From Escherichia coli (lineage in GTDB: Bacteria; Pseudomonadota; Gammaproteobacteria; Enterobacterales; Enterobacteriaceae): DNA of 64,000 nucleotides. Below, piece by piece: positions 23,238 through 56,931 of the stretch. The first letter of the stretch is position 1; every line of letters begins with the position of its first letter. The notes below the pieces were generated by a model. It was not told the origin of the DNA. It was given only the letters and a program-made list of their open reading frames with translations, and did not search any database. The position numbers and the translations under genes were made by a program. Location: assembly GCF_003334385.1 (NCBI RefSeq), contig NZ_QOWN01000002.1; one strand, 5' to 3'.

Positions 23238-24122
23238 ATGTCTCATTTAAAAGACCCGACCACGCAGTATTACACTGGTGAATATCCCAAACAGAAACAA
23301 CCGACGCCAGGCATCCAGGCGAAGATGACACCGGTACCGGATTGCGGCGAGAAAACCTATGTTGGTAGCGGTCGCCTGAAAGATCGTAAAGCACTGGTGA
23401 CAGGGGGCGATTCCGGAATAGGTCGCGCTGCCGCCATCGCTTACGCGCGTGAAGGGGCTGACGTGGCGATCAGTTATCTTCCCGTGGAAGAAGAAGACGC
23501 TCAGGATGTGAAAAAGATCATTGAAGAATGCGGACGCAAAGCCGTTCTGCTGCCAAGCGATTTAAGCGATGAGAAATTTGCCCGTTCGCTGGTTCACGAA
23601 GCGCACAAGGCGTTAGGCGGGCTGGATATTATGGCGCTGGTCGCCGGGAAACAGGTTGCCATTCCGGATATTGCAGACCTCACCAGCGAACAGTTTCAAA
23701 AGACCTTTGCCATTAACGTTTTCGCGCTGTTCTGGCTAACCCAGGAAGCGATCCCCCTGCTACCGAAAGGTACAAGTATCATCACCACTTCGTCAATCCA
23801 GGCATACCAGCCAAGTCCGCATTTACTGGACTATGCGGCTACGAAGGCGGCGATTCTGAACTACAGCCGTGGCTTGGCAAAACAGGTCGCGGAGAAAGGT
23901 ATTCGGGTGAATATTGTCGCGCCAGGCCCGATCTGGACAGCACTGCAAATTTCCGGCGGACAAACGCAGGATAAGATCCCGCAGTTTGGTCAGCAAACGC
24001 CGATGAAACGTGCGGGGCAACCGGCGGAACTGGCCCCTGTATATGTTTATCTGGCAAGTCAGGAGTCGAGCTACGTCACCGCAGAAGTGCACGGCGTGTG
24101 CGGCGGCGAGCATTTAGGTTAA
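23238..24122 (+). CDS. yghA: Short-chain dehydrogenase/reductase YghA
   Basis: 294 aa. SDR Rossmann motif [10 protein letters not shown] and catalytic YxxxK context. Confidence 0.9.
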
Positions 24123-37290: not shown

Positions 37291-39549
37291 TTACTCTTCG
37301 CTATCACCGCTGCTGGCACGGCGAGGAGAGTCGATCTCAACACGATCGATACGCTGCAAACCGCGCATCAACGTACCGCGGCGTCCACGTTCGCCAGTGA
37401 CTTTCTGTAACTCTTCCGGGCGCAGTTTAATTTTGCGTTTCCCAACATGAATGGTCAGCGTGCTTTGCGGCGGCAGAACGTACAATTGCGCCAGACCATC
37501 TTCTCCACGCGCGGCTTCTGCCGATGGAATGTTGATAATCTTGTTGCCTTTGCCCTTCGACAGCTGCGGCAGATCACTTACCGGGAACATCAACATACGG
37601 CCTGCCTGAGTGATTGCCAGCAGCATATCGGAAGCATCTTCAATCACCACCGGCGGCATAACATGGGCATTTTCCGGTAAGGTGATCAAAGCCTTACCTG
37701 CACGGTTACGCGCCACCAGATCGTTAAAGGTGCAGACGAAACCGTAACCCGCATCGGAAGCCATCAGCAGTTTCTGATCGTCGCTTTCCATCAGCATATG
37801 GTCAACGGTCGCCCCAGGCGGCAACGTTAATTTGCCGGTGAGCGGCTCGCCCTGACCACGCGCCGACGGCAGCGTAATCGGGTCAATGGCATAGCTACGA
37901 CCGGTGGAATCAACAAACACTACCGGTTGGTTGCTCTTACCTTTCACCGCCGCTTTGAAGCTATCACCCGCTTTATAATTCAGGCCCGGCGCGTCGATAT
38001 CATGGCCTTTAGCGCTGCGTACCCAGCCCATCTGCGACAGCACAATGGTGACAGGTTCAGACGGCAGCATGTCGTGCTCGCTCATCGCTTTCGCTTCTTC
38101 GCGTTCCTGCAACGGCGAACGACGATCGTCACCGTAGGCTTGCGCGTCTGCCTGCAGTTCTTTCTTCAGCAGGTTATTCATTTTACGCTCGGAAGCCAAA
38201 ATGCCCTGCAACTGGTCGCGCTCTTTTTCCAGTTCACTCTGCTCACCGCGAATCTTCATCTCTTCCAGTTTGGCAAGATGACGCAGTTTCAGTTCGAGGA
38301 TCGCTTCCGCCTGGGTTTCCGTAAGGCCAAACCGCGACATCAGCGCCGGTTTCGGTTCATCTTCATTACGAATGATCTCAATCACTTCGTCGATATTGAG
38401 AAACGCCACCAGCAAACCTTCGAGGATATGCAGGCGCTTGAGGACTTTCTCCAGACGATAGTTCAGTCGGCGGCGCACGGTATCGCGGCGGAACACCAGC
38501 CATTCGGAGAGGATTTCCAGCAGGTTTTTCACCGCCGGACGACCATCCAGACCGATCATATTAAGGTTAATACGATAGCTCTTTTCCAGATCGGTGGTAG
38601 CGAAGAGGTGGTTCATCACCTGATCCATATCCACGCGGTTGGAACGCGGCACAATCACCAGGCGGGTCGGGTTCTCGTGGTCAGATTCATCGCGCAGATC
38701 GTCAACCATCGGCAGCTTTTTGTTGCGCATTTGCGCAGCAATTTGCTCCAGTACGCGCACACCTGAAACCTGATGCGGCAATGCGCTGATAACCACCGCG
38801 CCATCTTCTTTCTTCCACACCGCGCGCATACGCACTGAACCACGTCCGTTCTCGTAGATTTTACGGATCTCGGCGCGCGAAGTGATAATTTCCGCTTCAG
38901 TCGGATAATCCGGCCCCTGCACGATATCCAGCAGCTGATCGAGCGTGGTTTTCGGCTGGTCGATTAATGCGATTGCCGCCTGAGCCACTTCACGCAGGTT
39001 ATGCGGTGGAATATCGGTCGCCATGCCGACGGCAATACCGGTGGTGCCGTTAAGCAAAATGTTTGGCAGACGGGCAGGTAGCATTTTCGGCTCCTGCAAA
39101 GTGCCGTCGAAGTTTGGCACCCAGTCAGCCGTCCCCTGCCCCAGCTCGCTCAATAGCAGCTCGGAATATTTCGACAACCGGGATTCGGTGTAACGCATTG
39201 CCGCGAACGATTTCGGATCGTCCGGCGCGCCCCAGTTCCCCTGACCATCAACCAGCGGATAACGGTAAGAGAACGGTTGCGCCATCAGGACCATCGCTTC
39301 ATAACAGGCGCTATCGCCGTGCGGATGGTATTTACCCAGTACGTCACCGACGGTACGGGCCGATTTTTTAAATTTGGCGCTGGCATTCAGGCCCAGTTCA
39401 GACATCGCATACACAATGCGGCGCTGAACAGGTTTCAGACCATCACCAATAAACGGCAACGCACGGTCCATGATCACGTACATGGAGTAGTTTAAGTAGG
39501 CGTTTTCCGTAAATTCATGTAGCGCAAGGCGCTCTGCCATATCGCTCAT
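37291..39549 (-). CDS. parC: DNA topoisomerase IV subunit A
   Basis: 752 aa; GyrA/ParC family ([18 protein letters not shown], catalytic AAMRYTE). Confidence 0.95.
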
Positions 39550-41426: not shown

Positions 41427-41822
41427 TTAACGGATTTCATTCAATAGTTCTGGATGCTTATCCAGAACACGTAAAAGTTTGATTGTGGAAGGATGAGGTT
41501 GGGCATTGCCTTTTTCGTAACGCGAAAACGCATTTACACCTCCCCCAAAAATTTCGCTTGCCTCTTTTTGGGTAAGAGAGAGCTTTTTTCGAACCTTCAC
41601 TATAAATTCAGGTGCCACTGTTTCGGCATTTACCGAAGCCCGAAATGCCTTTACTTGCGCCATGAAAGCATCTGACTCTTCTTTATTCATGATGCTCTCT
41701 TCGCAATGGACACAATATAAACCGTGGATACCTTTCAATACTGTTTTTCGTCCACGGAAGGTGTATGGAATATCTTTAATGCCAGAAACCATTTCTCCCT
41801 GGTGGCAAACCGGACATTTCAT
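41427..41822 (-). CDS. mqsA: Antitoxin / transcriptional regulator MqsA
   Basis: 131 aa; N-terminal zinc ribbon CPVCHQGEM...CVHCEE, C-terminal XRE-type HTH. Confidence 0.95.
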   Translation of the reverse strand: MKCPVCHQGEMVSGIKDIPYTFRGRKTVLKGIHGLYCVHCEESIMNKEESDAFMAQVKAFRASVNAETVAPEFIVKVRKKLSLTQKEASEIFGGGVNAFSRYEKGNAQPHPSTIKLLRVLDKHPELLNEIR

Positions 41823-41823
41823 A

Positions 41824-42120
41824 TTACTTCTCCTTAAACGAGACGATCAGTACGTCATGAATTACCGTAATTTTAAGATAAACCTGGCCTGTAACAAGCC
41901 TGGGTCTGTAAACATCCTGCCAGATAGTATGATCAGAGTAGGTGGTCATGCTTTTATAAAAGTCGCTCTCTGATAATCCAATGATAACATTACACATACC
42001 ATCAAAATCCAAACCTAACTCATCTGCATTTAACAGGGCACTACGTGTTGTACGAACTTGCCCGGCATTGACAAGTTTTTTAACCTGACTCAAACGTGTA
42101 TGTGGTGTGCGTTTTTCCAT
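41824..42120 (-). CDS. mqsR: mRNA interferase toxin MqsR
   Basis: 98 aa, MEKRTPHTRLSQVKKLVNAGQVRTT; toxin encoded upstream of the antitoxin with a 1-nt spacer. Confidence 0.95.
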   Translation of the reverse strand: MEKRTPHTRLSQVKKLVNAGQVRTTRSALLNADELGLDFDGMCNVIIGLSESDFYKSMTTYSDHTIWQDVYRPRLVTGQVYLKITVIHDVLIVSFKEK

Positions 42121-42150
42121 AACCCCCGCCTCCCTGTTACTTTAGTTATA

Positions 42151-42228
42151 ACCTAAAAGGTTAATTACAGCAATGAAAAAGCACCTAAAAGGTTAATTAC
42201 AGCAATGAAAAAGCACCTAAAAGGTTAG
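42151..42228. repeat. Tandem 32-bp direct repeat (2.4 copies) carrying MqsA-operator palindromes
   Basis: acctaaaaggttaattacagcaatgaaaaagc occurs at 42151-42182 and again at 42183-42214, followed by a partial copy acctaaaaggttag. Each copy contains an ACCT-AAA-AGGT palindrome. Confidence 0.7.
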
Positions 42229-42356
42229 TTAGATGTACGGAGATAGTGACCACACAAAACGTATTCTTTAAGGAAAGTGATTGACCATATAAGAAAGTGG
42301 CGCATTAGTAGCGCCAGTTTGAAGCAGGAATTTATAAGGGAAGCTGGAGTCAGGCA

Positions 42357-42839
42357 TCACGCCAACGGCACATAAACATCCGTTTCCAGTCGCTGCTCTG
42401 TCACCCCTTCGGCAAGATTGGTGTAGTGAAACAGAATCGGTGCTTTACGCATTTTCTCGCCGCTTGCAGGCAGCCAGTGGCGAATGATGCCCCATACCGT
42501 GTGTGAAATATCGTCCAGCTCGCCAACGTGGCGGGCCACGGCATAACGTCCACCGGTAAGTTCACCATTGCTCACACCATAACGATTATCGGGAATCGGT
42601 TCGCTAACGCTGCCGCAGATATCAAAGCGAAACGCTTCCGGTGCGGTGGTGGCAGGGTCGTCCCAGGCGACGCCAAAAGTCTGGCTTTGGTTAACAGGAG
42701 AAAGCCCCGTCTCTTTACGCCACATGATAAATTTCGCCACGCTGTAGTTGAGCAATTCAGGGCTACAGCGGTGCGGCAACATCGCCACAGGTATTGATGG
42801 GAAATCGATAATGTTTACATCCAGTGTCAGGTTTGTCAT
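42357..42839 (-). CDS. ygiV: GyrI-like domain transcriptional regulator YgiV
   Basis: 160-aa ORF at the K-12 ygiV position. Confidence 0.8.
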   Translation of the reverse strand: MTNLTLDVNIIDFPSIPVAMLPHRCSPELLNYSVAKFIMWRKETGLSPVNQSQTFGVAWDDPATTAPEAFRFDICGSVSEPIPDNRYGVSNGELTGGRYAVARHVGELDDISHTVWGIIRHWLPASGEKMRKAPILFHYTNLAEGVTEQRLETDVYVPLA

Positions 42840-56157: not shown

Positions 56158-56931
56158 ATGTCAGTACCTCTCATTCTGACCATACTGGCGGGGGCAGCCA
56201 CGTTTATTGGCGCGTTTCTCGGCGTTCTCGGGCAAAAACCCTCGAACCGCTTACTGGCGTTTTCGCTAGGTTTTGCGGCGGGGATCATGTTGCTCATCTC
56301 ATTAATGGAAATGCTTCCTGCCGCACTAGCAGCTGAAGGAATGTCGCCTGTGTTGGGTTATGGAATGTTTATCTTCGGTCTGCTTGGCTATTTTGGCCTG
56401 GACCGCATGTTGCCACATGCTCATCCGCAGGATTTAATGCAAAAATCGGTGCAGCCGTTGCCAAAATCGATCAAGCGCACAGCCATTCTGCTCACTCTCG
56501 GCATCAGTCTGCATAACTTCCCGGAAGGGATTGCCACCTTTGTCACGGCGAGCAGCAACCTGGAGCTGGGATTTGGCATCGCACTGGCCGTCGCGTTGCA
56601 CAATATCCCTGAAGGTCTGGCAGTGGCAGGCCCGGTTTATGCGGCAACGGGGTCTAAACGCACCGCGATTCTGTGGGCGGGAATTTCTGGACTAGCAGAA
56701 ATTCTTGGTGGTGTGCTGGCGTGGTTAATCCTCGGTAGCATGATTTCCCCGGTGGTCATGGCGGCAATCATGGCGGCGGTTGCAGGAATTATGGTGGCGC
56801 TCTCGGTTGATGAATTAATGCCGCTCGCCAAAGAGATTGACCCTAATAATAACCCCAGCTATGGCGTACTATGTGGAATGTCAGTGATGGGATTCAGTTT
56901 AGTGCTGCTACAAACGGCGGGAATTGGTTAA
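56158..56931 (+). CDS. zupT: ZIP-family zinc transporter ZupT
   Basis: 257 aa from [19 protein letters not shown]; His-rich and HNxPEG motifs (LHNFPEG, LHNIPEG). Confidence 0.9.

Follow-up and report, generated by a model that had tools for sequence, protein, structure and literature searches.

The stretch of Escherichia coli DNA analysed here (the window; 64,000 nucleotides of contig NZ_QOWN01000002.1, assembly GCF_003334385.1) carries the toxin–antitoxin operon mqsR-mqsA on its minus strand, with ygiV upstream of it. Few toxin–antitoxin operators have been studied as closely as the mqsRA promoter, and what its autoregulation does physiologically is a matter of dispute. In E. coli it has been described as a single promoter upstream of mqsR that is autoregulated by the antitoxin (PMC2814082), with two palindromes (PMC4894380, PMC5422877) to which MqsA binds (PMC4894380). 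The window departs from this two-palindrome architecture in having three operators, which lie immediately upstream of mqsR-mqsA, the proximal one overlapping the predicted core promoter. MqsA, their cognate repressor, is a product of the operon that follows them, and gives full-length matches to PDB entries 3GN5 and 3O9X, the latter being a solved MqsA–DNA complex. The features of the region are as follows:

41427..41822, minus strand: mqsA antitoxin/repressor gene, 131 aa, protein identical to that of K-12
41824..42120, minus strand: mqsR toxin gene, 98 aa, protein identical to that of K-12
42145..42150, minus strand: predicted -10 hexamer TATAAC, abutting the proximal palindrome
42151..42161, no strand assigned: proximal MqsA palindrome ACCTAAAAGGT, about -23 to -13 from the predicted start
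42151..42182, minus strand: repeat unit 1, promoter-proximal, including the proximal palindrome and the functional -35 hexamer
42168..42173, minus strand: predicted -35 hexamer TTGCTG, within the repeat unit
42183..42193, no strand assigned: middle MqsA palindrome, about -55 to -45 from the predicted start
42183..42214, minus strand: repeat unit 2, 100% identical to unit 1
42200..42205, minus strand: second TTGCTG (copy of the -35 hexamer), with GCTTTT as the hexamer 17 nt downstream
42215..42225, no strand assigned: distal MqsA palindrome, about -87 to -77 from the predicted start, where K-12 is without an operator
42215..42231, minus strand: partial third copy, consisting of the distal palindrome and a few flanking bases
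42298..42316, minus strand: terminator-like hairpin after ygiV, about 70 bp upstream of the distal palindrome
42357..42839, minus strand: ygiV, upstream of mqsR

A single repeat array was detected by Tandem Repeats Finder at positions 42151-42231 (period 32, 2.5 copies, 97% matches, score 155), with the consensus unit ACCTAAAAGGTTAATTACAGCAATGAAAAAGC, at a distance of 31 bp from the mqsR start codon. A repeat comparison of the third copy over 42215-42246 showed that its match to the unit ends with the palindrome. Using the MqsA operator motif as defined in PMC4894380 and PMC5422877, three exact ACCT-N3-AGGT palindromes were found, starting at 42151, 42183 and 42215, all directly upstream of mqsR, and the extended operator form TAACCT-N3-AGGTTA is likewise present in the window in three exact copies. 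The repeat and motif scans agree with an earlier note on this DNA, which had described a perfect tandem 32-bp duplication followed by a partial third copy, giving three palindromes. The array is not a chance arrangement: it contains exactly one perfect 32-bp unit more than the standard allele.

Since the 32-bp operator spacing corresponds to about three helical turns, all three operators are placed on the same side of the helix. The array also contains A-tracts of 4-5 bases, which begin at 42155, 42176, 42187, 42208 and 42219, and their spacings of 21, 11, 21 and 11 nt mean that they too are helically phased; their number rises from three to five through the duplication. The segment 42155-42223, lengthened by the duplication, may be intrinsically curved.

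The best sigma-70-like pair on the mqsR strand is TTGCTG and TATAAC separated by 17 nt, with the proximal palindrome occupying the spacer. It was obtained with a relaxed scan, as the standard promoter scan made no call for mqsR, the -35 hexamer having 3/6 matches. The transcription start near 42138 is a prediction from these hexamers, not from mapped data, and relative to it the operators are centred at about -18, -50 and -82, of which K-12 has the first two only. A second promoter at the duplicated -35 hexamer was considered and rejected, as the GCTTTT found 17 nt downstream does not provide a usable -10. Within mqsR, another sigma-70-like site was noted on the minus strand at 41897-41870 (TTGTTA, 16 nt, TAAAAT). 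In K-12, mqsA is also transcribed from constitutive internal promoters (Fraikin et al. 2019, PMC6918082), and this putative site is consistent with one of them.

To place the window beside the reference promoter, it was aligned to K-12 MG1655 (NC_000913.3), which contains exactly two palindromes and is otherwise base-for-base the same as the window throughout the promoter. An O16:H48 K-12-like genome also has two palindromes in a promoter that otherwise matches the window. The palindromes, the 21-nt spacer, the -35 and -10 hexamers, the ribosome-binding site and the MqsR and MqsA proteins are thus shared with the K-12 promoter (p-mqsRA, or pRA), whereas the window has three operators instead of two, with the added site near -82 and the -35 hexamer doubled. 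The added operator, including its flanks, is the same as the upstream operator of K-12, and the extra unit relative to K-12 can be taken as either unit 1 or unit 2. The earlier note had described K-12 as having only two palindromes with the same spacer, and this was borne out in both NC_000913.3 and the O16:H48 genome; a three-copy arrangement in K-12 itself, which would have removed the distinction, was looked for in the alignment and K-12 has two copies. Its proposal that this strain carries one extra operator unit also holds, the 32-bp unit being the sole promoter difference from K-12.

To estimate how common this arrangement is, complete E. coli genomes were searched with a 321-bp query, and the mqsRA locus was found in 2,296 of 5,426. 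Among the matches listed, nearly all span 289 bp of that query, one unit shorter than the window. The three-unit allele was sought separately using a 91-bp query consisting of the repeat only, at an E-value threshold that admits full-length matches alone, and was found in three of the 2,296 genomes with the locus: N18-04097 (Canada, human), SCU-104 (California, human) and SW070917 (Galápagos wastewater). In each of these the match covers the whole query and both flanks at 100%, which excludes four or more units, and such alleles number zero among the 2,296 genomes. Other natural variants of the promoter region that were inspected (a spacer SNP, an mqsR frameshift and an upstream IS1) all keep two palindromes. 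In strain NC19 a spacer G, two bases away from the distal palindrome, is replaced by C. JNEC-KY203 has a 1-nt deletion in the T-run that directly follows the start codon of mqsR, the gene being annotated as a pseudogene, and its ribosome-binding site is also changed. VL7S7 carries an IS1A inserted between ygiV and mqsR.

The window constitutes a fourth three-unit sequence and is identical to none of the three carriers. The four sequences lie 7-12 SNPs apart over 36.4 kb, nearly all of these SNPs being private, and the centre of the resulting star is occupied by two-unit genomes such as EC416. All four have an A at 56682, in zupT, an allele that is found as an exact 61-mer in 230 of 2,498 genomes (about 9%). 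An A at 38759, in contrast, is common to the window and SCU-104 only; it produces ParC A264V (codon 264, GCG to GTG, minus strand), a substitution present in one of 5,355 complete E. coli genomes, namely SCU-104. Two further SNPs in the left 22 kb are also common to the window and SCU-104, and these together with ParC A264V imply that the allele has been passed on by descent at least once. The ParC quinolone-resistance residues S80 and E84 are wild type in the window.

The flanking gene content separates the carriers further. N18-04097 (locus L006, 36659-38598) and SW070917 (locus L005, 36938-37635) have different IS1 insertions/deletions after ubiK and have lost the ygiL fimbrial genes, in regions that correspond to the window just beyond about 58800, while SCU-104 retains the ygiL fimbrial genes and its alignment to the window is unbroken there, up to 62235. 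From these sequence comparisons the window is close kin of SCU-104, and the three-unit allele is present in at least three distinct strain backgrounds. Over 58 kb, which is conserved across phylogroup A, the SNPs group only the window with SCU-104 as a sub-clade and otherwise offer one shared allele of about 9% frequency; the duplication may have occurred once, or may have had up to three separate origins. SNPs private to the window are found at 23556, 23772, 29262, 31962 and 41631 when it is compared with seven genomes, and at 14790 and 21596 when it is compared with four; the SNP at 41631 lies within mqsA and is silent at the protein level. Judging by these private SNPs, the strain from which the window derives is not one of the complete RefSeq genomes.

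Tandem repeats can be miscounted by assemblers, and the third unit might on that account be an artefact of assembly or sequencing. However, an ordinary read is longer than the whole array of about 80 bp with its 32-bp unit, and three complete genomes that come from different laboratories and different countries carry the identical allele, as does the non-identical window, with two of the four sequences having unique SNPs in common by descent. Given the same allele in three independent complete assemblies and in the window, and the shortness of the array, we regard the likelihood of an artefact as close to negligible.

The structure of the repeat suggests how the third operator could have been acquired. 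The two operators of the standard allele constitute direct repeats of 13 nt (TAACCTTTTAGGT) at an interval of 32 bp; the copies in the window are perfect and head-to-tail, and the corresponding unit in K-12 is bounded by this same 13-nt repeat. Slipped-strand mispairing or unequal exchange between the operator repeats would duplicate the 32-bp unit, comprising an operator and its spacer, and would yield three operators with identical cores at 32-bp spacing, without altering MqsR, MqsA, the ribosome-binding site or the core promoter. Judged from these repeats, slippage or unequal exchange is the most likely origin. On this reading, the allele is an example of palindromic operators that, by constituting direct repeats, give rise to their own duplication. 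The reciprocal deletion, leaving one operator, would be expected from slippage though it is not an obligatory product, and a search with a synthetic one-palindrome query found this allele in none of the 5,426 complete genomes, an absence that may reflect selection against it.

An array of this kind could also behave as a hypermutable contingency locus, in which frequent gain and loss of units varies toxin expression within populations. The perfect repeat tract is now 78 bp long and would be more prone to slippage than the 13-nt repeats of the ancestral allele. In a phase-variable repeat one would expect a range of copy numbers that often differ even between closely related strains. The 2,296 genomes contain only two alleles, of two and of three units; neither a one-unit form nor one with four or more was seen. 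Exactly three units are retained in both the window and SCU-104, although these are separated by 8 SNPs in 36 kb and several others in the left 22 kb. The exact three-unit string was found in no metagenome contig, against 13 contigs matched by the two-unit control, a number that makes this a small sample. A contingency locus is accordingly a highly improbable description of this promoter.

The reading we favour, to which we assign a probability of about 0.75, is that the window contains a genuine, inherited and rare mqsRA promoter allele, which originated by slippage, is bound by a third MqsA dimer and has a small effect. A third dimer, centred near -82, would be expected to bind the added operator, since this is the upstream operator of K-12 with its flanks and MqsA is unchanged. 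The proximal operator in the -35/-10 spacer is left untouched, and the effect on mqsR would not go beyond a slight strengthening of repression or a small rise in the threshold for its relief by MqsR, which acts as a derepressor (PMC4803016, PMC3920265) and not as a co-repressor (PMC4803016). The effect is expected to be small because the proximal operator is intact and repression of the K-12 promoter is already nearly complete: the wild-type reading of pRA is 111 AU, against 104 AU for background and 369 AU upon derepression (PMC6918082). If MqsA dimers on adjacent operators cooperate, the effect could exceed the small one assumed.

The earlier note had suggested that an extra MqsA site could tighten autorepression and change toxin induction dynamics. 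In a substantial effect of this kind, cooperative binding of MqsA to three in-phase sites would markedly tighten mqsR repression and raise the switch-on threshold, so that more free MqsR or more loss of MqsA would be needed to turn the operon on. Three sites with identical cores, 32 bp apart on the same DNA face, are compatible with this, the authors of the P. putida study speculate that two sites repress better than one (PMC5422877), and enterobacterial homologues retain two sites at 31-32 bp, suggesting that the spacing matters. However, the difference between 111 and 104 AU leaves little room for tighter repression at steady state, and MqsA is also supplied by the constitutive internal promoters independently of the operator (both PMC6918082). 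The third site, near -82 from the predicted start, would not overlap the RNA polymerase contacts, and the great rarity of the allele (3/2,296) does not suggest an advantage. We consider a substantial effect to be unlikely, though not implausible. A broader proposal is that operator number serves as an evolvable dial, with the operators as the recombination substrate and a cooperative three-site allele that measurably shifts the threshold of the toxin operon. If true, it would mean a lineage-specific change in stress- or phage-triggered growth arrest; we view it as doubtful.

The duplication might, conversely, raise mqsR expression, by creating a second promoter, by providing a phased A-tract upstream activating element or by moving the upstream DNA 32 bp farther away. 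The unit does carry the -35 hexamer, with the consequence that a second TTGCTG is present at 42205-42200, and the phased A-tracts increase from three to five. But GCTTTT has 2/6 matches to the -10 consensus TATAAT, the other hexamer pairs in the repeat reach at most 7/12, and the standard scan calls no promoter at the duplicated -35; two of the added A-tracts are operator centres and would be covered by MqsA. Raised expression is therefore very unlikely.

A core promoter with several repressor sites spread over it and upstream of it, as in the window, is also a feature of hipBA, with its four operators, and of relBE. Site number is fixed in those systems, whereas at mqsRA it is a rare within-species polymorphism. 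The mqsRA operon also differs from hipBA/relBE-type systems in that MqsR derepresses and does not co-repress (PMC4803016).

Within the MqsRA family, nine homologous mqsRA loci on plasmids were sampled, and none of the nine has a three-site promoter. The plasmid loci of Rahnella and Yersinia resemble that of E. coli: their two palindromes lie 31-32 bp from each other and the -10 hexamer directly adjoins the proximal palindrome, and the Rahnella homologues have the same promoter layout, AGGTTATAAT. They differ from E. coli in the sequence of the spacer, and those of Yersinia also in their half-sites. The sampled loci of Pseudomonas, Azotobacter, Burkholderia, Diaphorobacter, Sulfuriferula and Vibrio have one site or one near-match. 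The mqsRA operon of P. putida KT2440 has an ACCT-N3-AGGT-type operator bound by MqsA, as in E. coli (PMC5422877), and operators of this type are also present at the related loci of Pseudomonas, Azotobacter, Burkholderia and Vibrio. In contrast to E. coli, however, P. putida and these related loci have a single palindrome, near or overlapping the ribosome-binding site (PMC5422877 and the sampled loci).

In the literature searched, no earlier report of a duplication in the mqsRA promoter was found. The three-operator allele is thus a previously undescribed variant of a well-known operator, and probably an ordinary, rare and near-neutral polymorphism. Since its only difference from K-12 is one operator, the proteins and the core promoter being the same, it offers a clean natural reagent, which could be used to ask whether operator number and spacing matter for cooperativity, repression depth and induction threshold.

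A degenerate scan of GTDB genomes for three ACCT-N3-AGGT motifs separated by 11-31 nt gave, among the matches listed, unrelated arrays of mini-palindromes in Bacteroidota, cyanobacteria and others. Belliella alkalica (locus L035, 6763-7538) has 8.7 copies of an 89-nt unit and Pollutibacter soli (locus L071, 615-1331) has 4.5 copies of a 157-nt unit, each with ACCT-N3-AGGT-type mini-palindromes that are unrelated to MqsA.
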